Shown here: positions 5,227-51,971 of the stretch, one piece after another | Numbering within the stretch: position 1 is the first letter of the stretch | Layout of the letters: the number at the start of each line of letters is the position of its first letter | DNA from: a virus | Length of the DNA: 58,096 bases | IMG/VR virus record: IMGVR_UViG_3300027609_000006 | Span: 1-58,096 of that record | Direction: 5' to 3' (one strand) | Position numbers and translations under genes: made by a program | The notes under the pieces: model-generated | What the model was told of the DNA's origin: nothing | What the model saw: the letters and a program-made list of their open reading frames with translations, nothing else | Databases searched by the model: none

Positions 5227-5239
5227 AGGGGTTCCTTTT

Positions 5240-11422: not shown

Positions 11423-11957
11423 ATATTTAATCGGCGCGACCGATCCGGTGTGGGGCGAACTCATGAAACAGATCACCCGGCTCGAGCAACTCGATAAGTT
11501 TCCGTTTGGTCCGGAGGCCAAGAAAGATTTGGGCGCCGCGCTCGCGAACGCGGAATCGCTTGACGAAGCTCGGTTCACGATCGATGAATTCGTGCAGGGC
11601 GCCAGAGCTGGCGAAAAGTGTCCACTGTCGGGCGACATTGTGGCGTTGATCCAACAGCGGCATGCGCGCTCGCATCCGGTACTTGTGATGCCGGCCGCAG
11701 AAACACAGGCGCCGAAGAGCACGCATTGCGGCAAGTGCCAGGGCTTCGGATATTTCGGCGGCTACATCGGCGGCGGCCGGCACGCGCCGTGGGAATGGTG
11801 CGATTGCAGGAACGCGCAGCGAGCTTGCTACGAATCACCGGACCTGGTCGATGAAGCGAATCGCGTTCGCGAAAAACTGATCAAGCGTTTCGCCGGCCGG
11901 TTGTCATCGATGGTCACCACCGACGGATTACGCGACGAATCTCGCGGAGACTTCTGA
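11415..11957 (+). CDS. Hypothetical protein (replication module)
   Basis: GGAGGGAG lies 6 nt before the ATG. Contains CGKCQGFGYFGG. Confidence 0.6.
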   Translation: MLKYLIGATDPVWGELMKQITRLEQLDKFPFGPEAKKDLGAALANAESLDEARFTIDEFVQGARAGEKCPLSGDIVALIQQRHARSHPVLVMPAAETQAPKSTHCGKCQGFGYFGGYIGGGRHAPWEWCDCRNAQRACYESPDLVDEANRVREKLIKRFAGRLSSMVTTDGLRDESRGDF

Positions 11958-13929: not shown

Positions 13930-14799
13930 TTACCGCTGGGAGGCTATGAGTCTTTCGGTAAATGCTTCCAGTTCGCGCCGTTTCCAATCATGAGTAAAGG
14001 TTCTGACTTGCATAAGCCTTGTCATATTGTCGTCTACCGTACCATCCTCGTAATATCGCCGATGATGCCAACAAAGAACATCAGCCATCTGGAGGGGGTT
14101 GCGCGTGATCGGATCAACAGGCAGTACGTCGCCAATCAAGCCAGGTTCAGGCCAGCGCTTGTGCAGATCATCTACATAGGTCTTGTAGTGACCCGTTATT
14201 TTCCCGTTTCTAGACACTACAAAATCGATCTTTTCAGTATCGGGGAACAATGTTCGCGTGAAATTCAGAACAGTTTCCGCGTAAGCGAAGAAACATAGAT
14301 AATCAGGTAGATCCATGGTTCCACTGGGGACACGAATGCCTTGACTCTCAAGAAGTAGTAGCATGTCCCAGAGATCTGATCTTTGAATCACCGAAAGTAC
14401 AGAGTGTATGACTGGCGAACCAGGATGAGCACCAGCGGCGATCTCAGAGAGAAGTTCCGTTGCCAGAGAGACCTTTTCGTCTGCTTGGGCGGAAGTCAGT
14501 TTATTTTCTTTTTGGAACTCTTCGCGGCGGATCTCTCTCATGTGAAGATGTTTTATTTTTGGAGATGATGAGAGAATCCGGTTATTCCAGAGATCGGCAT
14601 ATTGTCCCCAGTAACTTTCCTTAGCGACGAACCCACCGACTAGAAATACACCTTCGATGTCGCCCGTGCCGCTCTCATCGGAAAATGCTACAAAAACCGC
14701 CAATCTTCTCTCCTGATTCAGACCGCAGAATAGCGAACGTACGAGGGACCCGGCCAATCCCGACATGCAACAATTGTTCTCTGTAGTGACCATCACCAA
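13930..14799 (-). CDS. DUF3800-like protein
   Basis: FSDESGTGD near the N-terminus and LQMADVLCW near the C-terminus, as in DUF3800. GC is visibly lower. Confidence 0.5.
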   Translation of the reverse strand: MVMVTTENNCCMSGLAGSLVRSLFCGLNQERRLAVFVAFSDESGTGDIEGVFLVGGFVAKESYWGQYADLWNNRILSSSPKIKHLHMREIRREEFQKENKLTSAQADEKVSLATELLSEIAAGAHPGSPVIHSVLSVIQRSDLWDMLLLLESQGIRVPSGTMDLPDYLCFFAYAETVLNFTRTLFPDTEKIDFVVSRNGKITGHYKTYVDDLHKRWPEPGLIGDVLPVDPITRNPLQMADVLCWHHRRYYEDGTVDDNMTRLMQVRTFTHDWKRRELEAFTERLIASQR

Positions 14800-14836
14800 A
14801 AGCCTACTTTCGTAAGCTTACAGAGTACACCCGATG

Positions 14837-15004
14837 TCAACGCAAAGACTTAAATACTATAGAACCGATCAACGGAACCAATGCGACAAACAACTGCCAT
14901 CCCTTATCCGTTGGCTCCGACATGTTCACGGTTTCGGCGTTCACATTCACCTGAATATAGTTCTGTTCAGGCAATAGTTGATCGGGTCTAAGATACTCTT
15001 TCAT
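14837..15004 (-). CDS. Small tail-anchored membrane protein
   Basis: GAGG lies 6 nt before the ATG. C-terminus WQLFVALVPLIGSIVF. Confidence 0.35.
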   Translation of the reverse strand: MKEYLRPDQLLPEQNYIQVNVNAETVNMSEPTDKGWQLFVALVPLIGSIVFKSLR

Positions 15005-15126
15005 TGGAGACCTCGCGAGGCGCACTGTTACAGCGCATGACGTGATCCGAACGAACGAGTATGGTAGGATTGCTTTGGGAAATCCCCATCTCATCCGTGC
15101 TCGAATCACGGATCGGATGAAAAGAT

Positions 15127-15152
15127 CGGGGCAGCCCCCTAAGGCTGCCCCG
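15127..15152 (-). terminator. 10-bp-stem GC hairpin
   Basis: CGGGGCAGCC-CCCTAA-GGCTGCCCCG. On the minus strand it is followed by ATCTTTTC. Confidence 0.4.
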
Positions 15153-15160
15153 TCTCAAAA

Positions 15161-15379
15161 ATGTTTCCCCTCGATTATACGCCTTTTGCGGAGTATGATG
15201 GGTTCAACATGAGACCGCTACCGCCCGCCCCAAATGTCCCTGGAAGTACGGACGCGGAACGCATGAGCAACGCTCTGAACATGGTTCTGAAGGTATCTAA
15301 AGCAGACCTGTTGAAAGAGGAAGCTCGGATCAAGGCCGCGAACGAAAAGAAGCGAGTTCCGAAGAAACCCGCTTCCTGA
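15161..15379 (+). CDS. Small protein, paralog of 43168..43329
   Basis: PPAPNVPGSTDAERM..VSKADLLKEEA versus PAPAPNVPGDTEQERM..VSKEDVVKEEA. The true start may be ATG 15209. Confidence 0.45.
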   Translation: MFPLDYTPFAEYDGFNMRPLPPAPNVPGSTDAERMSNALNMVLKVSKADLLKEEARIKAANEKKRVPKKPAS

Positions 15380-15451
15380 AATTCCACCAGCCTGTCATGT
15401 CGTAGTCTACGATAGCGGTCTGCGGCATGAGTTGTCAACTATATTCTTGCC

Positions 15452-17032
15452 TTAATTCGGCGCCACCTGCTCATCGTAATTTAAAAACTCACTAAGGAAC
15501 AGTTGGTACTTCGGAAGATTCTGTTCGATCACTCTCCACATCGGTTCGTAGGATCGAATCAACGGATCGAGCCCACATTGATTCGATCCAGGTTTAAATC
15601 CGAAATGCTGTTTGATCCAGTTGTAGTTCGACCGCCCGGCGACCGTTTCAATCCCCGTCCCTTCGGTCACGATTTGATTCGCAAACGTGAACCCGTTCGA
15701 ATCCGGTGATACCAGGTGTCCCATAAACATCGGCTCAATGCGTTTCAAAAACACAATACCGGGAGGATCTGCGGGGGGAGGTGGCTGCTGCGGTGGTGCT
15801 TGCTGCATTGGTTGCTGGGGTTGCTGGCCGTTCGCGATGGGCGGCGCTCCATTGGCAGTCCCCGTCAACTTGATCGTAATCGCCTGCATCAGAGGTCCCA
15901 GGATCGTCATACCCATCTGGATGATAGGACCCCATTCTTCCATCACGGATTTCGCTGGAGTTGCGTTCGCGGCTCCTCCATTGCGCGAGTATCCGAGCAG
16001 TTCCGCGTTCGTCTTCATTTCGAGAAGTTGCTCGCCAACGGATTTCTGAGTCGTTAGCGCTGTTGATGGCTGGTTTCGCATCGCATTGAGGTCCGCACGA
16101 AGCGCCGCAATCTGGTTATCCTGCATTGCAGCGAGTCGCGCGTTCGCCTGATCCAGCGAACTCATCAGCGCCGTGAGCGCGGTATTATCCGGCTTCGGCA
16201 GGATATTCAAAATTTCGGTCGCGACCTTCACGGGGTCTGGTGGATCGTAGCGAGCTCCCGCGTGGCTCATGACGGAATCCACGACTTTACTCGCCGATGA
16301 CATCGCTAGGTCGATCGCACCATTGACCGCATGTTGAGCCGGATTAGAACCATTTGGCTGTGTCTGTTCCCGCAATCGCGCAGCTTCATCTTTAGCTCGG
16401 TCTGCGTCTTTCTGCGCATTATCGATTTGTTTATCCGCGAGTCCTAGGAATCCCTGGACCAACACGGCGGCCGTTGCATTTGAATTGGGATTCGGTTTCC
16501 CGGTCGAGCCTTCCATAAAAAAATCATCTCCTTCGTTTGGTGCCGGTTCAGATCCAGCGACCGGATCGCCGCGGCGAAATCGCCAGTCAATATAATCTTT
16601 CGCGGCTGGCTTATCGACGCACAACGTTCGGTCATCGATCTTCGGCGGGAAGCCTTCGCGGTCGGGAAGTGTGAACCAGATATCGCAAACCCGGCCGCTC
16701 AGTCCCTGCTCCTCGACGATCACCTTATATGCTCCAGCCCCGTATTTGTGATAAAACGCAGTTTCGTATTCTTCCGCCTTGAACGCCAGCGGTCCTTCCC
16801 AAATATCGATCGTGGTCGACGTCTCGCCGATTTTCTTCATGTCGATGGGAGGATCGAGCCGGTAGACCCGGCATCGAAGGATCGCGGACAGTTCAACCGG
16901 CAGCGTTTCGCAATATTCGAAGCCCAGTATCGCATCCTGCGACCGTTTCCCATCACGAAATGACGTTTTCGATGGGACCGGGAACGAACATTTAGATTTC
17001 AGTTGAGGGTGATCAAGGTACTGTTTGGCCAT
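15452..17032 (-). CDS. Large hypothetical protein (526 aa), central coiled coil and Q/P-rich linker
   Basis: ORF track. No motif I can name. Confidence 0.75.
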   Translation of the reverse strand: MAKQYLDHPQLKSKCSFPVPSKTSFRDGKRSQDAILGFEYCETLPVELSAILRCRVYRLDPPIDMKKIGETSTTIDIWEGPLAFKAEEYETAFYHKYGAGAYKVIVEEQGLSGRVCDIWFTLPDREGFPPKIDDRTLCVDKPAAKDYIDWRFRRGDPVAGSEPAPNEGDDFFMEGSTGKPNPNSNATAAVLVQGFLGLADKQIDNAQKDADRAKDEAARLREQTQPNGSNPAQHAVNGAIDLAMSSASKVVDSVMSHAGARYDPPDPVKVATEILNILPKPDNTALTALMSSLDQANARLAAMQDNQIAALRADLNAMRNQPSTALTTQKSVGEQLLEMKTNAELLGYSRNGGAANATPAKSVMEEWGPIIQMGMTILGPLMQAITIKLTGTANGAPPIANGQQPQQPMQQAPPQQPPPPADPPGIVFLKRIEPMFMGHLVSPDSNGFTFANQIVTEGTGIETVAGRSNYNWIKQHFGFKPGSNQCGLDPLIRSYEPMWRVIEQNLPKYQLFLSEFLNYDEQVAPN

Positions 17033-17069
17033 CAGACAGGGCTCCGAGGGGGGCGGTTAATTGTAAGTA

Positions 17070-17098
17070 TATATATAGAGCCGGTTGACACGTGTCAA
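17070..17098. promoter_or_regulatory. Divergent promoter core: palindrome TTGACACGTGTCAA plus a minus-strand -10 TATATA
   Basis: Palindrome at 17085..17098 places TTGACA on both strands. On the minus strand a 17-nt spacer leads to TATATA (17070..17075). Confidence 0.55.
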
Positions 17099-17140
17099 AA
17101 TTCTAGTGCAAACTAGTACCCAACGCAAGTACCGGTACTA

Positions 17141-17824
17141 ATGAACACGGCGTACCATCCCGACTTCGGCGTCAAAGTGGCGTACCACTTCGACCGCATG
17201 TCCGAGGACCCGGACGCTCAGGTCCGTCAATCAGTTGCGAAGGCAATCTGCTACATTCGGCAGGACGCATCATCCGCCCCGATCCGCCAGGACGCCGCCC
17301 GCGCGGCCCAAGGAGGTGATCCGATCTCCGGGGTCTGGAAGCTTATCAAGCCGTCCATGAAGTTCAAGCAGGATGTCGACATCGCCCGCGAACTGGACGT
17401 AGACGATCCGCGTAAAGAGGACATCGTCGAGGTTTTCATCCGGCCTGTAGATCAGTCGATGCTGATTGGGTTGCGAGGCGTCGGGGTCGAGGACTGCGAC
17501 GGGTTCACGATGTACGGCGCGTGCCTGCTCACTGCGTTGGGGATTCCATGCGAGCTGGTCACGGTCGCAGCGGATGACAAGCGGCCTCGGGAGTACACGC
17601 ACATCTACGTTGCGGCTTATCCGAATGGACCGGGAACACATCCGAGAATTCCGCTTGATTTTTCACACGGTGAATATCCGGGCTGGGAATGTCCGTCAAC
17701 TCGATTGCGGGAATGGCCGGTGTATGAGACGGCGATGGAGAAGATTACTTTGGCCGCTACTCCTTTGGTCATTGCCGGTGCGGTTTATGGGTTGGTCCGG
17801 TGGATGAATGGGGGGAGCCGTTGA
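17141..17824 (+). CDS. Transglutaminase-like cysteine peptidase-fold protein, C-terminal TM
   Basis: EDCDGFTMYGACLLTALGIPCELV..THIYV..LDFSHG (Cys-His-Asp layout). Confidence 0.55.
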   Translation: MNTAYHPDFGVKVAYHFDRMSEDPDAQVRQSVAKAICYIRQDASSAPIRQDAARAAQGGDPISGVWKLIKPSMKFKQDVDIARELDVDDPRKEDIVEVFIRPVDQSMLIGLRGVGVEDCDGFTMYGACLLTALGIPCELVTVAADDKRPREYTHIYVAAYPNGPGTHPRIPLDFSHGEYPGWECPSTRLREWPVYETAMEKITLAATPLVIAGAVYGLVRWMNGGSR

Positions 17825-17969
17825 ATATTTTAGCCTCATCGAACATTTCCGCTTCGCCCGCGTCCGTGAGCGTTCGACCACGTCAGGTTTTATCGGGCAC
17901 CGGCCAAAAACCCCACCTGGTCGGGCGCTCACAAATCGACGGGGCAAAAAATCGGACGGAGGCCAAATC
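17825..17969 (+). repeat. Complete SAR hairpin (F-form plus R-form) filling the intergenic gap
   Basis: F: TTTTAGCCTCATCGAAC..GAGCGTTCGACCACGTCAGG. R: CCCCACCTGGTCGGGCGCTC..GACGGAGGCCAAATC. Open 50-codon micro-ORF 17821..17973 (TTGA overlap in, GTGA overlap out). Confidence 0.9.
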
Positions 17970-18719
17970 GTGAGCATCATAAATGTAGGATCAGAATACC
18001 CGCCAGGCTACACCGGAAACCCCTACAGCGCCCTGGACATCTCCGTGTTCTTCGATATGAACTGGCCGGATCATGCGGGAATCATGGCGCAAGGATCACC
18101 GGCTTATTCGTCAGGCCTCGGCAGATTGGGACAAGCCGGATGCGCTACCGCGACATGTGACGACTATGCAGATGATGGCGTCACATGTTTGGAATATGAC
18201 AATTCGAGTTGTACCAACGTTACGATCCCCGTTGCTGGCAACACGGCGGTTCCGATCCCCGCGGCGCCGGGATGTGCCACCAGCACTTGTATCGTAATGA
18301 ATCAAGGCGTTTGCACGGGTTACGACGATTCGAGTTGTTCGGCCTCGGTGAATGCAACGACCGCCGCGGCCCTCAATAATCAACTTATAGCTTCAGGGCT
18401 CCCTCAGACAGTGAATCTTAGCGCGACACAAACGGCGGCCCTCACCGCGAGCTTGACACCCGCTCAGCAAGCACAACTGATAGCCGCGGCGGGCAATTCC
18501 GCAGTCAGTCTCATTCGCACGGCTGAAGGTGGACCCTACACGGTCGCCGGAACGAACCTCGTTTACAATCCAGCCACCGGACAACTGACGACCGCCGCCG
18601 CGACGAATGCGACCGCAACCCTCACGGCCGGCCTCTCGGCAATTCAGCCCTACATTCCGATGATTCTACTTGCGGTCGCGGCCATCATCATAGTCCCGAT
18701 GATCACGGGTAAAAAATAA
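17970..18719 (+). CDS. Tail-anchored Cys/Thr/Ala-rich membrane protein
   Basis: GTG start after GGAGGCCAAATC. C-terminus IPMILLAVAAIIIVPMITGKK. Confidence 0.65.
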   Translation: MSIINVGSEYPPGYTGNPYSALDISVFFDMNWPDHAGIMAQGSPAYSSGLGRLGQAGCATATCDDYADDGVTCLEYDNSSCTNVTIPVAGNTAVPIPAAPGCATSTCIVMNQGVCTGYDDSSCSASVNATTAAALNNQLIASGLPQTVNLSATQTAALTASLTPAQQAQLIAAAGNSAVSLIRTAEGGPYTVAGTNLVYNPATGQLTTAAATNATATLTAGLSAIQPYIPMILLAVAAIIIVPMITGKK

Positions 18720-18955: not shown

Positions 18956-19725
18956 CCCCATACTGCCCCATCCCGCGAAATCCCGCGCACTACATCCCAC
19001 GGAATCCGTATGTCGATTGGGGTACGGGGATGGGGCAGGTGGTTCCCACATCGGTATCGACCGCAGCTTCAATCGCAGCGACCGGCATCACGACAACGAC
19101 CTCGATCTTGGGGGCGCTGGGTTCCACAATGACCGTCTTAGGATTGGCTCTGCCAGTCGTCGGAACGGCTATAGCCGCACTGGTGGCCATCGGAATTGCG
19201 GTTGCAAATCTATTCAAGGGTTGCGGAGTCACCTGCACCGAAGCGACGACGCTGGCGAATCAGGCGGACGGGATCATGGTCCAGAATGTGACCGCGTACA
19301 CGTCTTCGTCGATTCGCTACGTGTCGATGCAGCAGGCAGCGCTCAATACTTTCGACACGACCTGGGCAGCTTTGCAGCAGGCCTGTGGGCAGTCGGCGCT
19401 TGGAGCCGCCGGCCAGCGGTGCATCACGGATCGGCAGGAAGGCGCATGCACCTGGAAAGCATCGCAGGGAGGTTGGAATTCGGATGGAACCTACACCCCT
19501 TGGGGCGCGGCCGGCTCGGGAGATGTCTGCTGGAACTGGTTTGTCGGCATGCGTGATCCGATCGCGAATGATCCTTTCGTCCAACCGGACCCAACGTCTT
19601 CGAGTGTTGCATCTTCGTCTGTGGGATCGACGGCGGCGACATCAGGCACACCAGCGACTACGGCGACCGATTATTCCGGGTTGCTGATTGCGGCGGCTAT
19701 TGTTGCTGCGGTGGTGCTGCTGTGA
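18952..19725 (+). CDS. Membrane protein (central and C-terminal TM segments)
   Basis: ORF track, ATGA overlap with the upstream ORF. Confidence 0.7.
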   Translation: MTPYCPIPRNPAHYIPRNPYVDWGTGMGQVVPTSVSTAASIAATGITTTTSILGALGSTMTVLGLALPVVGTAIAALVAIGIAVANLFKGCGVTCTEATTLANQADGIMVQNVTAYTSSSIRYVSMQQAALNTFDTTWAALQQACGQSALGAAGQRCITDRQEGACTWKASQGGWNSDGTYTPWGAAGSGDVCWNWFVGMRDPIANDPFVQPDPTSSSVASSSVGSTAATSGTPATTATDYSGLLIAAAIVAAVVLL

Positions 19726-20024
19726 ATATTTTGGCCTCAGTTAGCATGTGGCTTGCGCGCCTCCTTTTGAGCGTTCGACCAGGAGGGGCCGTGGAGCTTC
19801 CCTGGCCAAACACCGCGACCTTCCGATTGTTCTTTGTTTCGAGAAAAGATCCGAAATGGGCGATGGTGGTTCACCAATTTCCCGACGGGACGATGTACGG
19901 GCTGGGTTGCAATATCCCTTTCGTGCAGTCGGCCGATTGGGATCTGAAATGGATCAAACGTCGCCCTGTCGAGGTTGCTCAATCCGAAGGCTCGGAAAAG
20001 CAGAGCGAGGCCAAACCATGCTAA
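19722..20024 (+). CDS. Cassette ORF between F and R arms (start uncertain)
   Basis: MNILAS..SVRPGG is F-arm translation and ..QSEAKPC is R-arm translation. Confidence 0.4.
   Translation: MNILASVSMWLARLLLSVRPGGAVELPWPNTATFRLFFVSRKDPKWAMVVHQFPDGTMYGLGCNIPFVQSADWDLKWIKRRPVEVAQSEGSEKQSEAKPC
19727..19788 (+). repeat. SAR arm, F-form
   Basis: TATTTTGGCCTCAGTTAGC..GAGCGTTCGACCAGGAGGGG. Confidence 0.9.
19962..20017 (+). repeat. SAR arm, R-form
   Basis: CGCCCTGTCGAGGTTGC..AGAGCGAGGCCAAACC, then ATG 20018. Confidence 0.85.
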
Positions 20025-20755
20025 TGGGAATGGGCCTCACCTGTCCCGAAGGTCAGCAGCCGACCAATACACCGAACGGAATGCAATGCTGCGGAGTGCC
20101 GGGCACCTCCTGCGAAGCAGATCCTTGCTCTTATTGCAATACCCCGCAGTACATCGCAACCCAGACCGCCGCTGCCGCCGCTGCGCTACAACCGGGAGGT
20201 GCCGGTCCGCTCGGAGCTTCGATTCTCGAATCCATCGCCAGCTATCCGCAAAATATCCAATCGGACGCGATCGACTGCGTGAGCAACCCAGGTTTGACCT
20301 TTACTGACGAAGAAGGAATTTCGGTCACCTGCCCGCAAGCCTACACGATGGACAATGGGATTCCGGTTTCGATTTACACTGCGGCGCAACTCGCGCAGAT
20401 GTTGTCTGCGGCAGCCACTCCAACCACGGAAACACCCATCAACGTAATCGGCACTTCCATTCCAGCCGCCGCAATCAATGTCACCACGCCGAATCTGCCA
20501 GCCGTCACGTCGGGAACTGTCGCTGCACCGGTTTCAACTACAGCCGCAGGATCGACCTCATCCAGTTCCCCATCGGGCAGTTCGTCAAGTTCATCCACTT
20601 CAACATCGGGCGCATCTTCGACTTCGGGAACTTCGACGCTTGATCTCTCGTTTCTGACGGACGATTCCCTGATTTCGGGAGTGCCTAACTGGGGCGTTGC
20701 GGTCGCAGCGATCGTGGCCTTGATGCTGCTGCCAAAACTGATCGGAGGCAGATAA
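20018..20755 (+). CDS. Tail-anchored Cys-rich, Ser/Thr-rich membrane protein
   Basis: N-terminus MLMGMGLTC, poly-Ser tract, C-terminus WGVAVAAIVALMLLPKLIGGR. Confidence 0.7.
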   Translation: MLMGMGLTCPEGQQPTNTPNGMQCCGVPGTSCEADPCSYCNTPQYIATQTAAAAAALQPGGAGPLGASILESIASYPQNIQSDAIDCVSNPGLTFTDEEGISVTCPQAYTMDNGIPVSIYTAAQLAQMLSAAATPTTETPINVIGTSIPAAAINVTTPNLPAVTSGTVAAPVSTTAAGSTSSSSPSGSSSSSSTSTSGASSTSGTSTLDLSFLTDDSLISGVPNWGVAVAAIVALMLLPKLIGGR

Positions 20756-20756
20756 A

Positions 20757-21236
20757 ATGGGGCTCGGACAATACGCAGGAGCCGCTTCGATCACGCTTTA
20801 TGACGGGACGGTTATTTCGGATCCCGCCAACACGCAGGCTACCCAAGCGCAATGCCTCCCATTCGAATGCGGAGTCGATCCGACCAATTCCGATGTCCGC
20901 TACTGGTGCGGATTCTGGGGACAAATCCAGACTCCTTCGTGCGTCGATCCGGAGTGCGCACCGTATCGGTCTGCGTCTCCCGGCTGTAATGTAGTCGCTC
21001 CCACGCCGCAGATTCCGAACCCGCCGCAACCCGCCGTTGCTCCGGTGATGCTGACGCCTCAGAATATCGTGCAGCCGATGCCGAATATCACGCAGGCGAA
21101 TGCGCCGGTACCGCTTCCGGTTTCCGATGGTTCGTGCTGGTGCGCAGTAAATCAGTGGATCGATCAGAATCCGATTCTTGCGGCTCTTGTTCTTGTGGGT
21201 TTTGGATTGGCTGTTTTGCCCGGGAGAAGCAGATGA
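20757..21236 (+). CDS. Tail-anchored Cys-rich membrane protein
   Basis: N-terminus MGLGQY, C-terminus PILAALVLVGFGLAVLPGRSR. Confidence 0.7.
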   Translation: MGLGQYAGAASITLYDGTVISDPANTQATQAQCLPFECGVDPTNSDVRYWCGFWGQIQTPSCVDPECAPYRSASPGCNVVAPTPQIPNPPQPAVAPVMLTPQNIVQPMPNITQANAPVPLPVSDGSCWCAVNQWIDQNPILAALVLVGFGLAVLPGRSR

Positions 21237-21240
21237 ACAA

Positions 21241-21387
21241 TATTTTGGCCTCATCGAACATCGATCTTCGCCCGCCTGTCCGCACGTTCGACCAGGATAA
21301 GTTGTTGGACTGCGCGGGTCCGAGCAACCACTCCTGGTCGGGCGCGTTCAATCCGCACGAAGCCTCAAATCCGACGGAGGCCAAATA
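21241..21387 (+). repeat. Complete SAR hairpin (F-form plus R-form)
   Basis: F: TATTTTGGCCTCATCGAAC..GCACGTTCGACCAGGA. R: CCACTCCTGGTCGGGCGCG..CCGACGGAGGCCAAATA. Micro-ORF 21233..21388, 51 aa (ATGA overlap in, TAATG overlap out). Confidence 0.95.
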
Positions 21388-22041
21388 ATGGACGAAGACA
21401 CCAAGCAATTAATCAAGTGGGGCGCCATCGGACTCGCGGGCTACTTCGTCTATCAGTGGCTCCAGAGCTCCGGCCTATGGGCGCAGTGGTTCGGAACGTC
21501 CACCGCTTCGAACTCGTTCAACACTTCGACCACCCTTCTCACCTACTGCCAGGCGAACCCCAACGGGACAGCGATTTACGTGGACCCCACGACGGGCGCG
21601 AGTTCGACCGCGACCTGTGCGCAATGGATCGCTTCGAATTCCAACGCCGCACTCCCGGTGACATCGGCCGCTTCCGGACTTGCCCCGAATTATCAGCAGG
21701 CAATTTCGCTGATGCAGCAAGCTGCCGGCAACGATTCGCAGACCGTCAATAACTGGTCCTACTATTGGCAGAACGGCACGATGTTCGATGGCGGGCCTCC
21801 TGGATTCGGAGTGCAGGGCTCAATTTCCCCGGCCCAGTTCAATCAGATTCTTGGATTGAACGCGAATGACGACACGGACCCGGTCACCTCAGAGCAATTC
21901 GTGGCGTGGCTCGTTCAAACCAGTTCCGATCCCAGCTCGGCTGGTGTAGCGACTCCCGCCGGCGTGATGGTGACCGGCGGAACTGGCGCGGGAATGCAGG
22001 GCTACGATTTCAATAGCGATTACAGCGGGTGGGTAAACTGA
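21388..22041 (+). CDS. Membrane protein (N-terminal TM)
   Basis: ORF track. N-terminus WGAIGLAGYFVYQWL. Confidence 0.7.
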   Translation: MDEDTKQLIKWGAIGLAGYFVYQWLQSSGLWAQWFGTSTASNSFNTSTTLLTYCQANPNGTAIYVDPTTGASSTATCAQWIASNSNAALPVTSAASGLAPNYQQAISLMQQAAGNDSQTVNNWSYYWQNGTMFDGGPPGFGVQGSISPAQFNQILGLNANDDTDPVTSEQFVAWLVQTSSDPSSAGVATPAGVMVTGGTGAGMQGYDFNSDYSGWVN

Positions 22042-22646
22042 TGGCGAAAGACGATTACACTTCGATCATTGCTCTCGCCGCAATCGGCGGGATCGCGTGG
22101 TACGGCTATGAACAGGGCTGGTTTTCCAGCCTGTTCGGAACTGCGGCAGCGGCGACCACTGGAACGCCGGCAGCCGCGATCAATTGTCCGTCTCCAAATA
22201 CGCTGGTTGCCGGCGTCTGTACCGCGCCAGTGACGTGCCCATCTCCGAACACAATTATCAACGGAGTATGCACCGCTCCCGTAGTGGCCGCAGCCGGCGG
22301 TTCGTCATCGACTACAGTGGCTCCGCAGGCGATCCCGACGGCCAGCGTCAGCGTCACCGATCAACCGTGGTATGACCAGGTCGCCGCGCTGGCATCGACC
22401 AATTCGCTCGATATGGACCAATGGGATTATTACTACAACCAGATTTTCTCCAGTGCCCCGATCACCGGAACGCAGGTCAACGCGATGCTCGCGGCGCTTA
22501 CCAATCTGGGCCAGACGCGAAGTACGCCGATGACGATGCCGCAGTGGTATTGGCTGCTGACGGCGGGCGGCGGGGGAGTCAGCGGACTGGGCATGTTTGG
22601 AAATTATTTTGGAATCCCGGCTAGCGCGATTCATGGAGGGTGGTAG
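22041..22646 (+). CDS. Membrane protein (N-terminal TM)
   Basis: TGATG overlap with the upstream ORF. Contains IIALAAIGGIAWYGY and repeated CPSPNT..GVCTAPV. Confidence 0.7.
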   Translation: MAKDDYTSIIALAAIGGIAWYGYEQGWFSSLFGTAAAATTGTPAAAINCPSPNTLVAGVCTAPVTCPSPNTIINGVCTAPVVAAAGGSSSTTVAPQAIPTASVSVTDQPWYDQVAALASTNSLDMDQWDYYYNQIFSSAPITGTQVNAMLAALTNLGQTRSTPMTMPQWYWLLTAGGGGVSGLGMFGNYFGIPASAIHGGW

Positions 22647-23171
22647 ATGCTGGTAGGACTCGCCCAAACCACGCCAATTCCGGTTCCGCTGACAACTAGC
22701 GGGGAAACTCTCGCTCAATCGTGCGCGGCGGAACTCGCGGCCAGTGGCGGGCAACCATTGGCGACCAATCCCTATATCCTAAACATGGCACTCGAAGGCA
22801 GTGGGATGGAAGGTCAGAATTTGACGGGATGCCCTCCGGGATACACACTGACGCAGGCGGGTCCGCCGAACGTGAATCAGCCATGCGGATATTACCAATG
22901 CCTGAATGCCGCTGGTCAAAACGTCTCGACGGCCGTCGTTGGTCCAGGGTCCACAAATCCATGTACGGGCTTTAAGGCAATCCCCACAGAGTCGTGGGTT
23001 ATCGGTGGTGCCGGACTGGTCATGTTCCTTTTGTTGGGAGGATGGCTCAAGATTCTCGCGATTCCGGTAGTTGGTTTCGCTGTGCTGAACGTGGCGCTGA
23101 CGAATCTCGGCCCGCAGGTGAATTTGCAAACCGGGCAGATCGAATGCGTGGCACAAGGATTGGAGATGTGA
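22647..23171 (+). CDS. Membrane protein
   Basis: N-terminus MLVGLAQT, two C-terminal TM segments. Confidence 0.7.
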   Translation: MLVGLAQTTPIPVPLTTSGETLAQSCAAELAASGGQPLATNPYILNMALEGSGMEGQNLTGCPPGYTLTQAGPPNVNQPCGYYQCLNAAGQNVSTAVVGPGSTNPCTGFKAIPTESWVIGGAGLVMFLLLGGWLKILAIPVVGFAVLNVALTNLGPQVNLQTGQIECVAQGLEM

Positions 23172-23329
23172 TGGGCGATCTTTCAAGCTGCTACTCCTGG
23201 GAAGCGACCTTCTCACCCCAAGTGTCTTGCGGAACTTCAAACCTGACCCAGAGCGTTTGTCCAGATGCGACGTGGTTTTGGGTGATCGCGGCCGGTATCA
23301 GCTTGGTTGCCATTTTTAAAAAGAAGTGA
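23171..23329 (+). CDS. Small tail-anchored membrane protein
   Basis: TGATG overlap with the upstream ORF. C-terminus WFWVIAAGISLVAIFKKK. Confidence 0.5.
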   Translation: MGDLSSCYSWEATFSPQVSCGTSNLTQSVCPDATWFWVIAAGISLVAIFKKK

Positions 23330-23727
23330 TGATCACAGCACAACATCTCGGAATGGGAAGCGTAACGCGCCTGACGTGTGCCTTCAATCGCAACCGCGGC
23401 GTGATGCTGGCAACCAGGGTGCGAACCGCCGAAACCTTTTCCGATCGCTGTATCGGGCTCTTGGAGCGCGATCATTTCCGGGTGGGCGAAGGCCTTCACA
23501 TCGTGCCGTGCTCCTCCATTCACACCGTCGGTATGAAATTCTCGATCGATGTTGCGTTTCTGGACGAAAATGGCGTGGTGCTCGAAACCTTCAAAGATTT
23601 GCAGCCGGGCCATCGCCGCATCGAATGTTTTAACGCGGTCTCCGCACTGGAATTGCCGTGTTGTGTATTGCGCGCGACCGGAACGCAGCCGGGTGACATT
23701 CTCGAATTCGCGGAGGTCTCATGCTGA
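23329..23727 (+). CDS. DUF192-like protein
   Basis: GLL..GEGLHIVPCSSIHTVGMKFSIDVAFLDENGVV is the DUF192 pattern. Confidence 0.6.
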   Translation: MITAQHLGMGSVTRLTCAFNRNRGVMLATRVRTAETFSDRCIGLLERDHFRVGEGLHIVPCSSIHTVGMKFSIDVAFLDENGVVLETFKDLQPGHRRIECFNAVSALELPCCVLRATGTQPGDILEFAEVSC

Positions 23728-24035
23728 TCGGAATGGGCCAAACCTGCGCGGACGGCACGGCATATGTTGCGAATTTCGGTTGTGACGATGGCAGCACCCC
23801 GACTTGCCCATCTGGATATACGCTGAGCACAGCTTCCGGGCAATATAGTTGCGTCAGCAGTTCAGGTGCAGCTCCGCTGATTGGCGTCACGGCACCAACT
23901 GCAACAACATCCACTTGTCCGGTTGGTTCGACCTGTTCAATAGTCGCGGGAATCTCGAACACGAATATCTATCTGGCCGTAGGCGCCGTTGTCTCGATGT
24001 TCTTGTTGGCATCGGTATTCGGGGGCAAAAGATGA
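23721..24035 (+). CDS. Tail-anchored Cys-rich membrane protein
   Basis: N-terminus MLIGMGQTC, C-terminus IYLAVGAVVSMFLLASVFGGKR. Confidence 0.65.
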   Translation: MLIGMGQTCADGTAYVANFGCDDGSTPTCPSGYTLSTASGQYSCVSSSGAAPLIGVTAPTATTSTCPVGSTCSIVAGISNTNIYLAVGAVVSMFLLASVFGGKR

Positions 24036-25904: not shown

Positions 25905-26324
25905 ATCATCCGACACTTCGGAACCCTCATGACTAATCTCCATATCATCGCGACCGATCGCGCCGGGAACATTTGGGATTGCGGCCCCACCCCGAGTCAC
26001 GATTGGGCAAAGGTGCGCGCGAGTCTCGAATCTTCCGTTGGTACGCCATTCTTCGGAATGCCAGGAAAGACGCCATTGCGAAAAGGTTGGCATCCGGAGT
26101 ATGACGAAATTGTGGGACGGACAGAACACGGCTTAGATATCCCGCGAATCACCCTTGAAACGGTTTTCAATGATTGGGACACGCTCAATCGAGATCACGG
26201 CGCTGGAACTTTCGAATCTGTTGCAAACTTCGATGAGATGGCGGTTTTAAAAGTCGCTCTCGAAGCCTATAAGCACCTCCTGGTCGAACGCGAAAAAGGG
26301 CGCGCGAAGAGGGGTGTGCAATGA
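25848..26324 (+). CDS. Hypothetical protein (between F and R arms)
   Basis: ORF 25770..26324 trimmed to ATG 25848. Confidence 0.55.
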   Translation: MSAWPHISETRTLDARRGRIIRHFGTLMTNLHIIATDRAGNIWDCGPTPSHDWAKVRASLESSVGTPFFGMPGKTPLRKGWHPEYDEIVGRTEHGLDIPRITLETVFNDWDTLNRDHGAGTFESVANFDEMAVLKVALEAYKHLLVEREKGRAKRGVQ

Positions 26325-26333
26325 GGCCAAAAC
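26274..26333 (+). repeat. SAR arm, R-form
   Basis: CACCTCCTGGTCGAACGCG..GTGCAATGAGGCCAAAAC. ATG 26321 lies inside the arm terminus. Confidence 0.8.
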
Positions 26334-27079
26334 ATAATCCCGCCAAATTCGACCGTTGCGTAAAGGACGTGAAGCGTTCCAAATCCGCCCGTAGCGCCTA
26401 CGCTATCTGCACAGCAGCCGGAACCCGCAACCCCGGTACCGGAGCCATGGTCGCCTCAGCACTCAGCCACTCCGCCGCCGGCCGCAAAGCACAAGTTGCG
26501 ATTAAAAAGCTTTTCTCGAAGGCAAAGAACCCGCAGGACGCCTCTGAGCAGATGTTCGAAATCTTCCACGGCATGGCGCCGAATGAAATCCTGCACATCG
26601 TGGAGCGCGTTCACGTGCACGCGAACCTGTGGACGGCCGGCACACTCACATCAATGGTGATCCAAACAGAGTATGGCTATCAGTTCGATTTAAACGCGCC
26701 GGACCCGGACACCGCGAAGCCGAAGGATGTGGTGTACGTCACCTTCAACGAAGCCGGAAACCAGATCTACTTCCGCGGCGGCAATCAGGAAATCCCGAGA
26801 TCGTGGCTCGAAAAAGCCGGGCTCAAATCCGACGACTTCCGGGAGCACATGATTATCGGCGCGGTGGTCGAACTGACATACCGGACGAAAAAGAAATTCG
26901 AGAAGGGCGGAAAAGAACTAGTGGACTTCTATCACGGCTTGGGAAAAGAGCACTCGCGCGGAGTTTTGCCGATGCTGGTTTACAAGCCGCGTGATCCGAG
27001 CATGGCGCTCTACGGAGGGCGATATAAAGTGTTGCCCAAGAGGGCGGATTTGGGCGCGAGTCCGGGAATCGGCGGATGA
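26321..27079 (+). CDS. Hypothetical (possibly virion) protein
   Basis: NPAKFDRCVKDVKRS..SAYAICTAAG. Confidence 0.7.
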   Translation: MRPKHNPAKFDRCVKDVKRSKSARSAYAICTAAGTRNPGTGAMVASALSHSAAGRKAQVAIKKLFSKAKNPQDASEQMFEIFHGMAPNEILHIVERVHVHANLWTAGTLTSMVIQTEYGYQFDLNAPDPDTAKPKDVVYVTFNEAGNQIYFRGGNQEIPRSWLEKAGLKSDDFREHMIIGAVVELTYRTKKKFEKGGKELVDFYHGLGKEHSRGVLPMLVYKPRDPSMALYGGRYKVLPKRADLGASPGIGG

Positions 27080-27844: not shown

Positions 27845-28053
27845 ATGAGCGGATGTTGAAATACACGCTGAAGGAAGCGGAGACGGGAATTCGGATGATG
27901 GCGCGCAACAAATCCCCGATGCACTTCTTTGACTGGGGAACCGACACCGCCGGAACAAAGCATGTATTTGTAATGGCAATCCTGCCCGAGGATGCCGTAG
28001 CTGCCTTCGAATCGCAAATGAACCCGTCAGAACCGGTGGAGTCCAACGCATGA
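27841..28053 (+). CDS. Hypothetical protein
   Basis: ATGA overlap with the upstream ORF. N-terminus MNERMLKYTLKEAE. Confidence 0.55.
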   Translation: MNERMLKYTLKEAETGIRMMARNKSPMHFFDWGTDTAGTKHVFVMAILPEDAVAAFESQMNPSEPVESNA

Positions 28054-29177
28054 ACTTCATCTTCCTGAGCGTTCCAACATTCGAGCCGTGGGACTGGACC
28101 AACCCGGATACCGTGGGAATCGGCGGCTCCGAAACCTCGCACATCGAGATGAGCAACCGGCTCTCAGACCGCGGCCACAGCGTCTATTCGTACGGCCCCA
28201 CGCCGTTCAAGGAGCCGACCGTCAACCCGCACGGCGTGACCTGGGAGCGCTGCGACAACGATCAGAATATCTGGCGCCGCGAGGGCGTCTGGGTCATCTA
28301 TCGCGATCCGCAGTCTATTGACGATGTGCACCCGGACCAACCTGCATGGTTGATCTGCCAGGATGTGGATTATCCGCAGCTCACTGAGGAGCGCGCCCGC
28401 AAGTTCACCCGCATCGTGACCCTCTGCGAAACACACGCGTTCTATATGCGCCTTCGCTTTCCGCATCTCGCGGATCGGATTTGCGTTTCGTCGAATGGCA
28501 TCAAGTCGGAGCTAATCGAAGCTGCGCTGAAGAATCCGCCCACGCGCAACCCCAAGCGGCTGATGTACGCATCGAGCCCCGACCGGGGACTGATCCACCT
28601 AGCGACGGTTTTCAGCCGGGCGCGCGAAGTGATCTCCGATCTGGAATTACACGTGTACTACGGCTTCAATAATATCGACAAGGTCGTAGAGAAAAGCCAG
28701 CACGTCCGCAGAATCACGAACGACATCCGCCGGCAGCTCGACCAGCCGGGCATCGAGTGGCACGGCCGCACCGCGCAACCGGAGTTGATTCAGGAGTGGC
28801 TCAAGGCGGGCATCTGGTGCCACCCATCGAGCTTTACGGAAACCTCCTGCATCACCTGCATGGACGCGCAGGCGCTGGGGGCGATCCCGATCACAACTCC
28901 CACCTGGGCCATCGGCGACAACGTCAAGCACGGCGTGTTCATCGAAGGCGATCCGTACAACGATAATCTGACGCGGGCGCGGTACACGCTGGAGTTGATC
29001 CGCCTCGCGAGCGATGAAAAACGGCAGGCCGAAATTCGCGCGGAGATGATGCCCTGGGCGCAAGGCTTTTTCGGCTGGGAGAAGTTCGTGGACCAGTGGG
29101 AAGAGTGGGCGCGGGAAGATCTGAGCCAATCCCAGATTCGGCTTGTCCCGCGAGTCCTTCAGGAGGCAGTGGCGTGA
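28050..29177 (+). CDS. Glycosyltransferase, GT-B (group 1/GT4-like)
   Basis: GIGGSETSHIEMSNRLSDRGHSV and a C-terminal E..E region (FTETSCITCMDAQALGAIPI). Confidence 0.7.
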   Translation: MNFIFLSVPTFEPWDWTNPDTVGIGGSETSHIEMSNRLSDRGHSVYSYGPTPFKEPTVNPHGVTWERCDNDQNIWRREGVWVIYRDPQSIDDVHPDQPAWLICQDVDYPQLTEERARKFTRIVTLCETHAFYMRLRFPHLADRICVSSNGIKSELIEAALKNPPTRNPKRLMYASSPDRGLIHLATVFSRAREVISDLELHVYYGFNNIDKVVEKSQHVRRITNDIRRQLDQPGIEWHGRTAQPELIQEWLKAGIWCHPSSFTETSCITCMDAQALGAIPITTPTWAIGDNVKHGVFIEGDPYNDNLTRARYTLELIRLASDEKRQAEIRAEMMPWAQGFFGWEKFVDQWEEWAREDLSQSQIRLVPRVLQEAVA

Positions 29178-30009: not shown

Positions 30010-30710
30010 CGCGAAAGAAAACCATCGGGACGGTCGGATACATGGGCGGCGTCATGGCCCTGCCGGAGCCCTTCGTCTACTCCTGGACGCAGATGATCGA
30101 ATTCAATCAGGACGCGCTCTGCCAGGAGGATCAGCAGATCCATTACACGCGAACGCAGTACAGCTTGCATTCGGCGGCGCGTAACGACCTGGTCGAGCGG
30201 ATGCGCGGCGACTGGCTGTTGCAGCTCGACACCGATATCGTGTTCGATCCCGACTTCTGCGCACGCCTGGTGCGGGTGATGGAAGTTTATAATCTCGATA
30301 TCGTCACGGGCGTCTACCCGTACAAAAGCAACCCCGGCGTTCCGACGCTCTATCGCCACAATTCCGAAATTGGCCGGCATGATCCAATCGCGGTTCCTGA
30401 AGAAGCGATGGGCATGGAAGTTTTCGAAGTGGATTCCGCCGGCGGCGGCTGCTTGCTGGTAAAGCGCTCCGTCTTCGCGCGAATCCTCAACGAGCTGAAG
30501 CAACATCCCTTCGAGATGATTCCCCCGATGGGGGAAGACCACTCGTTTTTCGCGCGCGCCCGCAAATTGGCAATCAAAGCCCATTGCGCCTGGCAAGTGC
30601 AGGCCGCGCACCTCGGATTTAAACAGGTCGTGTACCAGCACAATCCCGACCTGCCAATTTTGAACCAATACGCGGCGACCGCCGCCAGAAAAGGAGAACT
30701 ACACGCATGA
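30003..30710 (+). CDS. Glycosyltransferase family 2-like
   Basis: LQLDTDIVF (DxD), GGGCLLVKRSVF, GEDHSFF. Confidence 0.65.
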   Translation: MLTRKKTIGTVGYMGGVMALPEPFVYSWTQMIEFNQDALCQEDQQIHYTRTQYSLHSAARNDLVERMRGDWLLQLDTDIVFDPDFCARLVRVMEVYNLDIVTGVYPYKSNPGVPTLYRHNSEIGRHDPIAVPEEAMGMEVFEVDSAGGGCLLVKRSVFARILNELKQHPFEMIPPMGEDHSFFARARKLAIKAHCAWQVQAAHLGFKQVVYQHNPDLPILNQYAATAARKGELHA

Positions 30711-31054
30711 TCGTAAACTACCTGAACGCAGGCGGGCCGGGCAACGTCGCTCCGACAGTGGCTCAAGCGCTCACGTTCAATACGCTGAACGTGTCGCTGA
30801 GTCCGTCATCGACTCTCGACACATCGCAGGCCATCACCACCAACTGGGGACTCCCGCCCTCGGATATTTCCGCCGGTTGGCCGTTCATCCACATTCAACC
30901 GATGGATTTCACGGCTGGATCTTCGGGATGGTACAACATCAGCCAGGCTCCGAGTTTTGTGATTGTCGGTCGCGTCGGAACCACGGCGGGAATCGATACC
31001 GCGAACGCTCAGGTGATTGTCTCAATCGCACGTCCGATTTCGTTAGTTCGATAA
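30707..31054 (+). CDS. Hypothetical beta-rich protein
   Basis: ORF track. Confidence 0.6.
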   Translation: MIVNYLNAGGPGNVAPTVAQALTFNTLNVSLSPSSTLDTSQAITTNWGLPPSDISAGWPFIHIQPMDFTAGSSGWYNISQAPSFVIVGRVGTTAGIDTANAQVIVSIARPISLVR

Positions 31055-31055
31055 T

Positions 31056-31201
31056 ATGTCGGCCTCAGTCAAATCCGGTCTGCGCATCAACGCTCTATCG
31101 TTCGGCCAGGAGAGGGTTTCGCCCTTCGCGGGTCCAAAACACTTCTCCTGGTCGGGCGCTCCGGAACCAACCGAAGCCACTCCGTCGAAGGAGGCCAAAA
31201 C
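31056..31201 (+). repeat. Complete SAR hairpin (F-form plus R-form)
   Basis: F: ATGTCGGCCTCAGTC..ATCGTTCGGCCAGGAGAGG. R: CTTCTCCTGGTCGGGCGCTC..GAAGGAGGCCAAAAC. Micro-ORF 31056..31220, 54 aa. Confidence 0.9.
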
Positions 31202-31357
31202 ATGTTCATCACCCGAGTAACGAAGGTCGTCAATCCGCATCATGCATCTGCTCACCGGAGCAGGTCCGTAGCGGAATCAGGGGGAAGTCCGTCTTTCTCG
31301 AACCCAGCGGCTCACATGCTGACGCTGGGATTTATCAATCCCAAAGGGAGGGTCTTA

Positions 31358-51966: not shown

Positions 51967-51971
51967 AAAAC

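Follow-up and report, generated by a model that had tools for sequence, protein, structure and literature searches.

A doublet of inverted repeat copies lies between two co-directional genes of a viral genome (IMG/VR virus record IMGVR_UViG_3300027609_000006, positions 1 to 58,096; this whole stretch of 58,096 nt is called the window). The doublet (21240-21389) is crossed from end to end by a 51-codon micro-open reading frame (micro-ORF, 21233-21388) that starts where the upstream gene (20757-21236) has its stop codon and stops where the downstream gene (21388-22041) has its start codon. The locus is one instance of a family-wide phenomenon whose components, repetitive palindromic intergenic elements and relay ORFs through intercistronic stem-loops, are of known kinds. 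The density of the repeats, their fixed register to stop and start codons and the consistency of the bridging ORFs are unusual in a phage genome. As judged from comparison of many copies, such doublets would be repeat elements that are tolerated or used in operons because the bridging ORF acts as a relay restoring termination-reinitiation coupling between the genes on either side, the reading judged most likely here, with moderate confidence.

The repeat unit is ~65 nt long and was identified by a repeat search, a motif scan, an alignment of 56 copies and a profile (nhmmer) search. About 60 copies are present in the window (61 nhmmer hits, 56 alignable units), roughly one per kb, and together they account for ~6.5% of the ~58-kb genome. 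The consensus, aaaACCyCTCC-TGGTCG(A/G)(A/G)CG - N12 - CGCGAAGcc - N12 - CCGa(t/c)GAGGCCAAA-NN-AT(G), contains a Shine-Dalgarno (SD) sequence with a start codon, in the form GAGG-CCAAA-NN-ATG. In about half of the units GGCCAAA stands exactly 2 nt ahead of the ATG that opens a long ORF, with GAGG or GGAGG as the SD, while the remaining units are antisense and lie directly 3' of a gene's stop codon. Two subtypes can be told apart, an AA-type (GTCGAAC..CGATGAGG) and a GG-type (GTCGGGC..CGACGGAGG); the latter is the subtype with the strong SD and is nearly always in sense orientation, before genes. RNAalifold found no consensus structure across all 56 single units, and an apparent covariation of GTCG(AA/GG)C with (AT/CG)GAGG reflects subfamily structure and not clean base-pair covariation. 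An ORF usually crosses single units too, its stop overlapping the following start as ATGA.

Doublets follow one layout, an antisense AA-type unit (the F arm), a conserved centre of ~20 nt and a sense GG-type unit (the R arm). The locus at 21240-21389 has this layout, and both of its arms belong to the family by the profile of 56 aligned copies (E about 1e-11). That these arms are ordinary copies of a genome-wide, start-associated repeat was absent from the preliminary description of the locus. The window holds three doublets in which the sense copy follows the antisense copy after ~20 nt (17825-17969, 21240-21389 and 31054-31203), all between + strand genes, and an alignment of 21 doublets gives the shared centre of the others as ..GGTTTTG-yCyTTCGCGGGTAG-AAAAACC... 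Of the 15 doublets first found, 14 could be placed, as could most later additions, and all of these have co-directional flanking genes. In each doublet whose flanking genes were both identified, the F arm begins 0-17 nt after the upstream stop, and the R arm ends at the downstream start. At the locus itself, the R arm provides both the SD (GGAGG, 21376-21380) and the current ATG of the downstream gene.

Computational folding turns the element into a long hairpin on either strand, more stable than shuffled sequences. The + strand RNA reaches -63.8 kcal/mol (z = -3.5, with 0 of 200 shuffles as stable), and the - strand fold is stronger (-76.3 kcal/mol, z = -4.8). Two helices had been proposed for this hairpin. 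The central one, CGTTCGACCAGGA with TCCTGGTCGGGCG, forms as described, with 11 Watson-Crick and two U.G pairs; the basal one, TTTGGCCTC with GAGGCCAAA, holds over 9 bp, but the tenth position quoted is an A/G mismatch. Across the doublets, whose predicted stabilities range from -51 to -76 kcal/mol, the invariant repeat blocks give a consensus structure with a basal helix of 8 bp and a central helix of 14 bp. The SD region is paired with a probability of 0.53-0.84, and its partner lies 8-19 nt past the upstream stop in nine of ten doublets; at the locus, the base 14 nt past the upstream stop codon is the ensemble partner (p = 0.79) of a G in the downstream SD.

Comparison with related contigs (designated L and a number) supports the view, already put forward in the preliminary description, that the doublet is an insertion placed exactly between two cistrons. 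In at least nine relatives (L234/L283, L235, L284, L238, L239, L241, L242, L243 and L244) the orthologous junction is empty of any unit, stop and start codons overlap directly (ATGA, TGATG or TAATG), and the next gene begins M-[KDN]-D..TK... A purine-rich SD within the last codons of the upstream gene serves the overlapping start of the downstream gene in these contigs. The window, where the upstream gene ends AGC AGA TGA, retains this layout (GGGAG, a 6-nt spacer and an ATG), which here opens the micro-ORF. From this SD and ATG, now those of the micro-ORF, the downstream gene appears to have been initiated ancestrally, a point likewise missing from the preliminary description. The closest relative, L253 (IMG/VR 3300043811_000165; ~70-77% nucleotide identity), has the same doublet at the same junction, with ATGA and TAATG overlaps and an open 50-codon frame, the two orthologous doublets being about 75% identical. 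Stop codons in frame or missing overlaps in orthologous hairpins had been named as observations that would count against a frame preserving the coupling; neither is seen in L253.

Other contigs and junctions show further states. L233/L140 carry a solo antisense unit at this junction, and there the downstream gene, the first of an apparent paralogue pair, is missing. The junction at 20755/20757 is empty in the window and filled by a doublet in L235, and the junction at 31054/31202 occurs in four states: the window and, with orthologous copies, L235, L052 and L270 have a doublet, L284 has one sense unit only, L283 a remnant of 20 nt, and L233 nothing. Such varied occupancy indicates that the elements turn over on the time-scale of these genomes' divergence. 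When filled and empty sites were compared, no consistent direct repeat was found at the target, and the ATG/CATG recurring at both ends belongs to the unit. Both flanking ORFs can be taken as real genes from their many homologues in related contigs (L233, L234, L235, L238, L239, L241-L244 and L284 for the upstream gene; L238, L239, L241-L244, L284 and L253 for the downstream gene) and from the coding-type pattern of their substitutions relative to L253. The downstream gene and its neighbour 22029-22646 appear paralogous, and the protein of 22029-22646 also matches the region orthologous to 21388-22041 in L243 and L239.

The micro-ORF, which translates as MNNILASSNIDLRPPVRTFDQDKLLDCAGPSNHSWSGAFNPHEASNPTEAK, overlaps both neighbours as originally reported, its ATG (21233-21235) lying on the TGA (21234-21236) of the upstream gene and its TAA (21386-21388) on the ATG (21388-21390) of the downstream gene. 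Bridging ORFs of this kind are found in most doublets. Typically they start from -14 to +17 nt of the upstream stop, often at ATGA, TTGA or TAATG, and stop from -9 to +16 nt of the downstream start, often at ATGA, TAATG or GTGA. A bridging ORF was present in 12 of 14 doublets, against a mean of 3.95 (maximum 11) in 5000 shuffles in which the variable positions were permuted and the conserved blocks and start/stop contexts held fixed. When each junction was counted through one representative, which lowers the effect of shared ancestry, 13 of 17 independent junctions were bridged against a null mean of ~4.5-5 (maximum 10 in 4000); this simulation left out two junctions without a bridging ORF, and the count takes L235-6356 and L235-19154 as bridged, the latter with an in-frame stop immediately preceding the start. 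Across the genome, the +1 frame (that of ATGA-type stops) stays open over a median of 236 nt upstream of unit-associated starts, versus 87 and 100 nt for the other two frames (Wilcoxon p = 0.011 and 0.0014). Together with the two overlaps and the open frame kept in L253, the bridging of 13 of 17 junctions where ~5 would be expected supports, by comparison of sequences, the earlier suggestion that the reading frame through the hairpin is maintained and would preserve coupling.

What is maintained does not extend to the peptide. Relative to its ortholog in L253, the micro-ORF has substitution rates of 0.24/0.29/0.22 at codon positions 1/2/3, whereas the third position is the most changed in the flanking genes (0.28/0.23/0.49 and 0.20/0.14/0.42), so the peptide is not under selection. 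The two orthologous micro-ORFs differ in length by exactly 3 nt. Between copies of the doublet the same block is read in different frames (LASS or WPH; FDQE or VRPG; SWSGA or LVGRS) and the start codon has different sources (a flanking ATGA or TTGA, or ATG-TTGGCC at the unit edge); it is openness, and not a peptide, that the varying frames have in common. That the micro-ORF encodes a functional small protein is hardly credible, even though it has an open frame with a good SD (GGGAG at 6-nt spacing) and an ATG and its per-codon codon-usage score is similar to that of the upstream gene. The third-position excess seen in both neighbours is lacking, the residues common to copies fall on nucleotide-conserved repeat blocks that other copies read in other frames, one half of the peptide results from reading in antisense the repeat that encodes the other half, and the corresponding ORF in L283 is unannotated in public gene calls. 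The micro-protein was rejected on the lack of a third-position excess against L253 and the different frames among copies.

In the relay reading, the doublet would have been gained in the common ancestor of the window genome and its closest relative, by insertion into a junction where the stop of 20757-21236 once overlapped the start of 21388-22041. The R arm would have brought a new SD (GGAGG) and a new ATG, leaving the old SD and ATG (21222-21235) at the upstream stop. On the polycistronic mRNA the arms would pair and hold the new SD in a helix whose opposite strand begins 8 nt past the upstream stop, and the 151-nt gap would also break termination-reinitiation coupling. Ribosomes finishing the upstream gene (at 21236) would restart at the overlapping ATG 21233, translate the 51-codon frame through the hairpin and melt it, terminate at the TAA (21388) and restart at the overlapping ATG 21388. 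The peptide would be a by-product, and selection would act on an open frame with its start at the upstream stop and its stop at the downstream start.

Two models of translational coupling are established, RNA unfolding and reinitiation by the same ribosome (PMC12548453). Coupling by reinitiation decays within about 20 nt of added stop-start spacing (PMC12548453), so a 151-nt structured insertion in an NTGA junction should break it, and the presence of two NTGA/TAATG junctions joined by an open frame favours a relay. The RNA-unfolding model could yield coupling without any translation of the micro-ORF. On this account a ribosome that terminates at the TGA (21234-21236) occupies or opens the basal helix in its F half, freeing the SD and ATG 150 nt away for a new ribosome, while the micro-ORF is never meaningfully translated and owes its openness to stop-poor conserved blocks. 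Phage f1 genes VII/IX, MS2 coat/lysis and rpmI-rplT are established cases of long-range unmasking (PMC12548453), and the short distance from stop to F arm (0-17 nt) kept in all doublets fits it, as does the position of the SD partner 8-19 nt past the upstream stop. Unfolding alone, the main rival to the relay, nevertheless seems unlikely, as it leaves unexplained the excess of starts at stops and stops at starts over shuffles that keep the blocks, the open but frame-shifted copies and the exact 3-nt length difference between orthologs, and the central helix of 13-14 bp would refold at once.

Several results weigh against the relay or against an RNA-level role for the hairpin. The conserved unit blocks are nearly without stop triplets in any frame, and the shuffle null may understate inherited openness, as the copies share ancestry. 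Four of the 17 junctions have no clean bridging ORF: L256-5295 has two open frames with no start codon, L235-14535 a chain of short ORFs, L257-1138 lacks an adjacent downstream gene, and in L231 the frame is an in-frame extension of the downstream gene. In single units the SD is masked no more than in control genes (0.49 vs 0.54). The preliminary description had argued from the two wobble pairs to a structure in the coding-strand RNA, an argument that does not stand in that form. Both positions do read UG in 20 of 21 doublets, but this follows from the fixed polarity (an AA-type F arm with a GG-type R arm), and over the whole arms G.U-type differences (58) do not outnumber A.C-type differences (66). 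The argument is further weakened by the lack of a strand preference in folding energy, with seven of 14 doublets folding better on the + strand and seven on the - strand, and by the lack of covariation in the hairpin helices (a term of 0.08 kcal/mol with 21 doublets aligned). Pairing between the two arms of one doublet is no stronger than between arms of different doublets (-55.7 vs -55.4 kcal/mol, p = 0.38), giving no sign of per-hairpin co-evolution or of a young perfect palindrome. What does speak for a role on the mRNA, where the hairpin would form in vivo, is the polarity of the doublets and the register they keep to stops and starts.

A purely DNA-level selfish or recombination element, such as a REPIN or MITE (miniature inverted-repeat transposable element) doublet or a module-shuffling linker, for which hairpin and ORF are incidental and have no role on the mRNA, would sit well with this lack of covariation and strand bias. 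It would also account for the high copy number, the presence/absence polymorphism at orthologous junctions, the composite doublet with its own conserved centre, and the diverged unit families of distant relatives, which recall how REP families differ between species. As the sole explanation it is rather improbable: Pfam annotation of 74 window proteins shows a serine resolvase but no transposase, RAYT or tyrosine recombinase, a target-site duplication is not definable, the doublets keep fixed polarity to transcription and fixed register to stop and start codons, about half of the units supply a gene's SD and ATG at a fixed 2-nt spacing, and bridging ORFs are enriched. A DNA-level origin is compatible with either the relay or the unfolding model and by itself does not explain the ORF enrichment or why copies persist. 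Intercistronic R sites of phage T7 are a precedent for processing of the RNase III type, and the doublets could likewise be sites of RNA processing or stability, at which a ~60-bp imperfect duplex is cut by RNase III or a phage nuclease, separating the cistrons and leaving a protective 3' hairpin. A long, imperfect and very stable duplex (-51 to -76 kcal/mol) is predicted in all doublets, intercistronic and repeated, and cleavage of transcribed MITE hairpins by RNase III is documented, for example in Correia elements (PMC10969869). We consider this very improbable as the main function, since it predicts neither bridging ORFs nor stop/start overlaps and cleavage within the stem would remove the SD partner and destroy the relay; processing and relay are not mutually exclusive.

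The nearest functional precedent, by analogy, appears to lie in integrons, where stem-loops formed by the attC sites between cassettes hinder ribosomes. A short ORF within attC overcomes this obstacle through termination-reinitiation, so that the following cistron is expressed again; ORF-11, ORF-17 and ORF-18 of attI1 act likewise irrespective of peptide sequence (PMC8876359). Both systems have an imperfect palindrome (~60-140 nt in attC) between co-oriented cistrons that forms, or here would form, an mRNA stem-loop impeding ribosomes (PMC8876359), and a short ORF running from the preceding stop through the palindrome to the next start, the peptide sequence being unimportant. They differ in that the window encodes no integron integrase (IntI) or any tyrosine recombinase (Pfam, 74 proteins), that the termini are TTTGGCCTC/GAGGCCAAA and not RYYYAAC/GTTRRRY, and that the arms are copies of a unit that also stands singly ~50 times, itself with SD and ATG. 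Moreover, the host replicon here is phage-like, and the bridging ORF, occasional in attC, is the rule (13/17 junctions). Identity with attC was rejected, as IntI and GTTRRRY cores are absent.

Other known repeats share parts of this anatomy. REP/BIME and REPIN elements are short imperfect palindromes at gene boundaries, found in both orientations and in lineage-specific families, and inverted REPIN doublets form one long hairpin that behaves as a unit, singlets outnumbering doublets (PMC3116915, PMC3337134). The doublets here share with REPINs the layout of two inverted repeats around a short spacer, predicted to form one hairpin. The window differs in having no RAYT (IS200/IS605-like Y1 transposase) among its 74 proteins, although a host-encoded enzyme is possible, in a unit of ~65 nt against 20-40 nt with no GTAG-type head seen, and in a density of ~1 per kb in a 58-kb viral genome, with units tied to starts (SD and ATG) and crossed by ORFs. 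MITEs (Correia/NEMIS, ERIC and the Rickettsia palindromic elements, RPE) are palindromic repeats of ~100-150 nt with insertion polymorphism and co-transcribed mRNA hairpins that affect expression, and RPEs insert in frame, compatible with translation (PMC10969869). The doublets share with MITEs their terminal inverted repeats, small size, many copies and presence/absence polymorphism. In contrast to MITEs, they have no identified target-site duplication (from comparison of filled and empty sites) or parental insertion sequence (in the window), and always lie at stop/start junctions with fixed polarity; and where RPEs encode a conserved peptide inside host proteins, the peptide here is unconserved and belongs to a separate relay cistron.

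Among phage repeats, the start-associated sequences (SAS) and extended SAS (ESAS) of Cluster K mycobacteriophages also lie directly upstream of many starts, are phage-specific and include the SD (PMC3203893). An imperfect inverted repeat precedes the SAS in about half of cases, and its function is presumed to be translational (PMC3203893). SAS is a 13-bp sequence (GGGATAGGAGCCC) located 3-8 bp upstream of starts, in one orientation, with 11-19 copies at non-structural genes only (PMC3203893), whereas the window unit is ~65 nt long, occurs in ~60 copies in both orientations genome-wide, forms 150-nt doublets with bridging ORFs and has no sequence similarity to SAS. Hairpin-mediated coupling with NTGA-type gene overlaps is known from phage f1 genes VII/IX, MS2/fr coat-lysis and E. 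coli rpmI-rplT (PMC12548453). Those structures are single and gene-specific, while here the mask would consist of a mobile or repeated module, and two NTGA/TAATG junctions are connected by a dedicated 50-codon relay ORF.

Table 1. Features of the doublet locus and of the two other tight doublets; coordinates are positions in the window.
Feature	Start	End	Strand	Description
Upstream gene	20757	21236	+	159 aa; C-terminal tail membrane-anchor-like; TGA 21234-21236; from the ORF list
Initiation region now opening the micro-ORF	21222	21235	+	GGGAG 21222-21226, spacer 6 nt, ATG 21233-21235
Bridging (relay) micro-ORF	21233	21388	+	51 codons; start overlap ATGA, end overlap TAATG
F arm	21240	21303	-	antisense repeat unit, AA subtype (GGTCGAACG...CGATGAGGCCAAAATATT on the - strand); nhmmer E = 6.6e-11
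Basal helix, 5' half	21244	21252	+	TTTGGCCTC; begins 8 nt past the upstream stop codon; from folds
Central helix, 5' half	21285	21297	+	CGTTCGACCAGGA; from fold
Doublet centre	21304	21325	+	apical stem and loop; from alignment of 21 doublets and fold
R arm	21326	21389	+	sense repeat unit, GG subtype (CTCCTGGTCGGGCG...CGAAG...CGACGGAGGCCAAATAATG); nhmmer E = 2e-11
Central helix, 3' half	21332	21344	+	TCCTGGTCGGGCG; holds both G residues of the conserved U.G pairs
Basal helix, 3' half	21377	21385	+	GAGGCCAAA; SD region of the downstream gene; P(paired) = 0.74
Downstream gene	21388	22041	+	217 aa; membrane segment at N-terminus; MDEDTKQLIKW...
Sister doublet	17825	17969	+	between genes 17141-17824 and 17970-18719; bridging ORF with TTGA start overlap and GTGA end overlap
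Sister doublet	31054	31203	+	between genes 30707-31054 and 31202-31891; bridging ORF 31056-31220, 54 codons

Searches for other functions at the locus gave nothing. The Rfam 15 covariance models had no match at E <= 1 within 21100-21500, and no terminator-like site was found in 20500-22000, the hairpin being followed by TAATGGACGAAG and not by a T-run. No promoter was found at the locus. Promoter readings of the unit made from the sequence only (sigma-70, extracytoplasmic function (ECF), sigma-54 and leaderless) were dropped because half of the units are antisense and follow directly on stops; the preferential openness of the +1 frame upstream of unit-associated starts disfavours them as well. 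Neither unit nor doublet belongs to an Rfam family, a tRNA being the sole match at gathering score in the window, and a literature search, which included the sequence strings of the repeat, found no published description of it.

Looser arrangements of the units also occur. Four 'wide doublets' were noted in the window (19726-20019, 2651-2905, 34507-34830 and 51754-51967), in which a spacer of 90-210 nt separates an antisense unit after a stop from the sense unit that precedes the following start. In the cases inspected a single ORF of ~77-106 codons runs across the whole arrangement and terminates at that start or no more than ~40 nt from it, as in 19722-20024, which has a GTGA start overlap and a stop 4 nt past the ATG at 20018; at the junction corresponding to 19726-20019, L284 has a tight doublet with an ATGA...ATGA ORF of 51 codons. 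In some AA-type units a core ATG (G-ATG-AGGCCAAA) is the best candidate downstream start (M-R-P-K..), as at 26321 in the window (unit 26274-26335), 8447 in L235 and 669 in L052, and the bridging ORF stops at the TGA of the same ATGA. A tail-to-tail pair, sense on the + strand and then sense on the - strand with a 58-nt spacer, lies at 53810-53995 in the window and 3161-3346 in L025; it has the reverse layout of the hairpin doublets, is kept in the closest relative and stands at the border of a - strand and a + strand block. A second, smaller start-associated repeat family (CCCTTAGCGCGAACGG..GGCAG.CGGC....GAGGGGAGCGCCAAaCCATGA, ending ..GCCAAACCATGA at the start codon) is found at 6481-6545, 8014-8078, 35090-35154 and 48918-48982, with an inverted copy at 38633-38699, and its 3' block, GAGCGCCAA, is the repeat type that predominates in L238, a distant relative.

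Nucleotides 1-99 of the window are identical to 57998-58096, giving a circular (or terminally redundant) assembly of 57,997 nt. Almost no window protein receives a PHROG or Pfam name, those named being two HerA/FtsK-type ATPases, a serine resolvase, a D12 methyltransferase, a subtilase, several glycosyltransferases, and DnaJ and PIN domains; the Pfam scan of the 74 predicted proteins found no transposase (including Y1_Tnp), RAYT or tyrosine recombinase, and the serine resolvase is the only recombinase. A phage holin gene is present in one relative, and the window is thus most likely the genome of a bacteriophage of an uncultivated group. Syntenic relatives were recovered with a conserved GT4 glycosyltransferase (28050-29177; 657 homologues, many on 40-63-kb contigs) as a marker and with DNA patterns of the repeat. 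The unit family of the window is also found, at 0.15-1.4 copies per kb, in contigs whose marker is at least about 70% identical.

The profile scores zero in more distant contigs, which instead have diverged versions of the unit, such as ..GAGAAGAGCGCCAACAT.. in L238 and ..CGGGGAACGACC..GCGAAGCC..GTCGCCAAnCCAT.. in L242. Their existence indicates an element class that predates the GAGGCCAAA family and changes along with the virus lineage. The blocks GCCAA(A)NCAT, CGAAG and GTCGAAC are retained, in diverged form, even there. Diverged units occur at 14537-18660 and 21055-21098 in L238 and at 1603-1655, 3123-3181, 5205-5257, 14440-14500, 19293-19354 and 20174-20237 in L242, with the same layout in both orientations (..GAACGACC.. 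/ GCGAAGCC or GTGAAACC / ..GTCGCCAAnCCAT). Outside this group of contigs, 20000-24000 had no blastn match among GenBank phages, exact-peptide scans of IMG/VR for both flanking proteins, an exact-protein look-up and a scan of GTDB genomes with the marker protein returned nothing, and the doublet pattern matched only four times in 185,579 species-representative genomes, all in high-GC metagenome-assembled genomes without profile units, as by chance.

The window contains further repeats. A tandem array of a 21-nt unit (TCGGCAGAATCTCCCGGTACG; 3.5 near-perfect copies and degenerate ones) at 10943-11016, more widely ~10842-11025, occupies a divergent intergenic region between a - strand block ending near 10858 and the + strand gene 11076-11957; it is iteron-like and may be a replication origin or an operator array. 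A 42-nt tandem repeat (51161-51310; 3.6 copies, 86% matches) lies inside ORF 50684-51712 (-), whose N-terminus matches a D12 N6-adenine methyltransferase, and would encode an in-frame protein repeat of 14 residues. A direct repeat of 299 nt with 79% identity (39829-40127 and 40518-40816) spans the 5' parts of two adjacent - strand genes, the HerA/FtsK-like ATPase 39072-40133 and ORF 40454-40825, each preceded by a unit, and may be a partial gene duplication. A tRNA-Thr gene (anticodon CGU, 57120-57194, -), the only Rfam or ARAGORN match in the window, directly adjoins the unit at 57057-57115.

More broadly, and only tentatively, units and doublets could be phage-borne, polarity-neutral intercistronic modules of ~65-150 nt that have spread to stop/start junctions and are kept there through a relay ORF that each copy carries or soon acquires and through their own SD and ATG, so that operons would be translated as unbroken chains of termination and reinitiation. 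In a stronger version, masked SDs may make the translation of nearly every gene strictly dependent on that of the preceding gene, amounting to a genome-wide, repeat-encoded relay, and a phage factor possibly recognizes the conserved GCCAA(A)NCAT, CGAAG and GTCGAAC blocks.

For annotation, start codons adjoining GAGGCCAAA-NN-ATG can be called with confidence, and about 6% of the genome and many ORFs of 40-100 codons in this uncultivated virus group would, if the relay reading is true, be repeat-derived relay frames and not genes. The family would then constitute a natural, replicated experiment on translational coupling, in which one structured module has been placed in many overlapping gene junctions: nearly all copies that survive begin a frame at the old stop, keep it open through the hairpin and end it at the new start, with the peptide free to drift. 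It would make testable how far coupling reaches through a relay cistron, whether the 'intergenic' repeats of phages are translated, and how selfish or regulatory palindromes escape polar effects in densely coupled operons.

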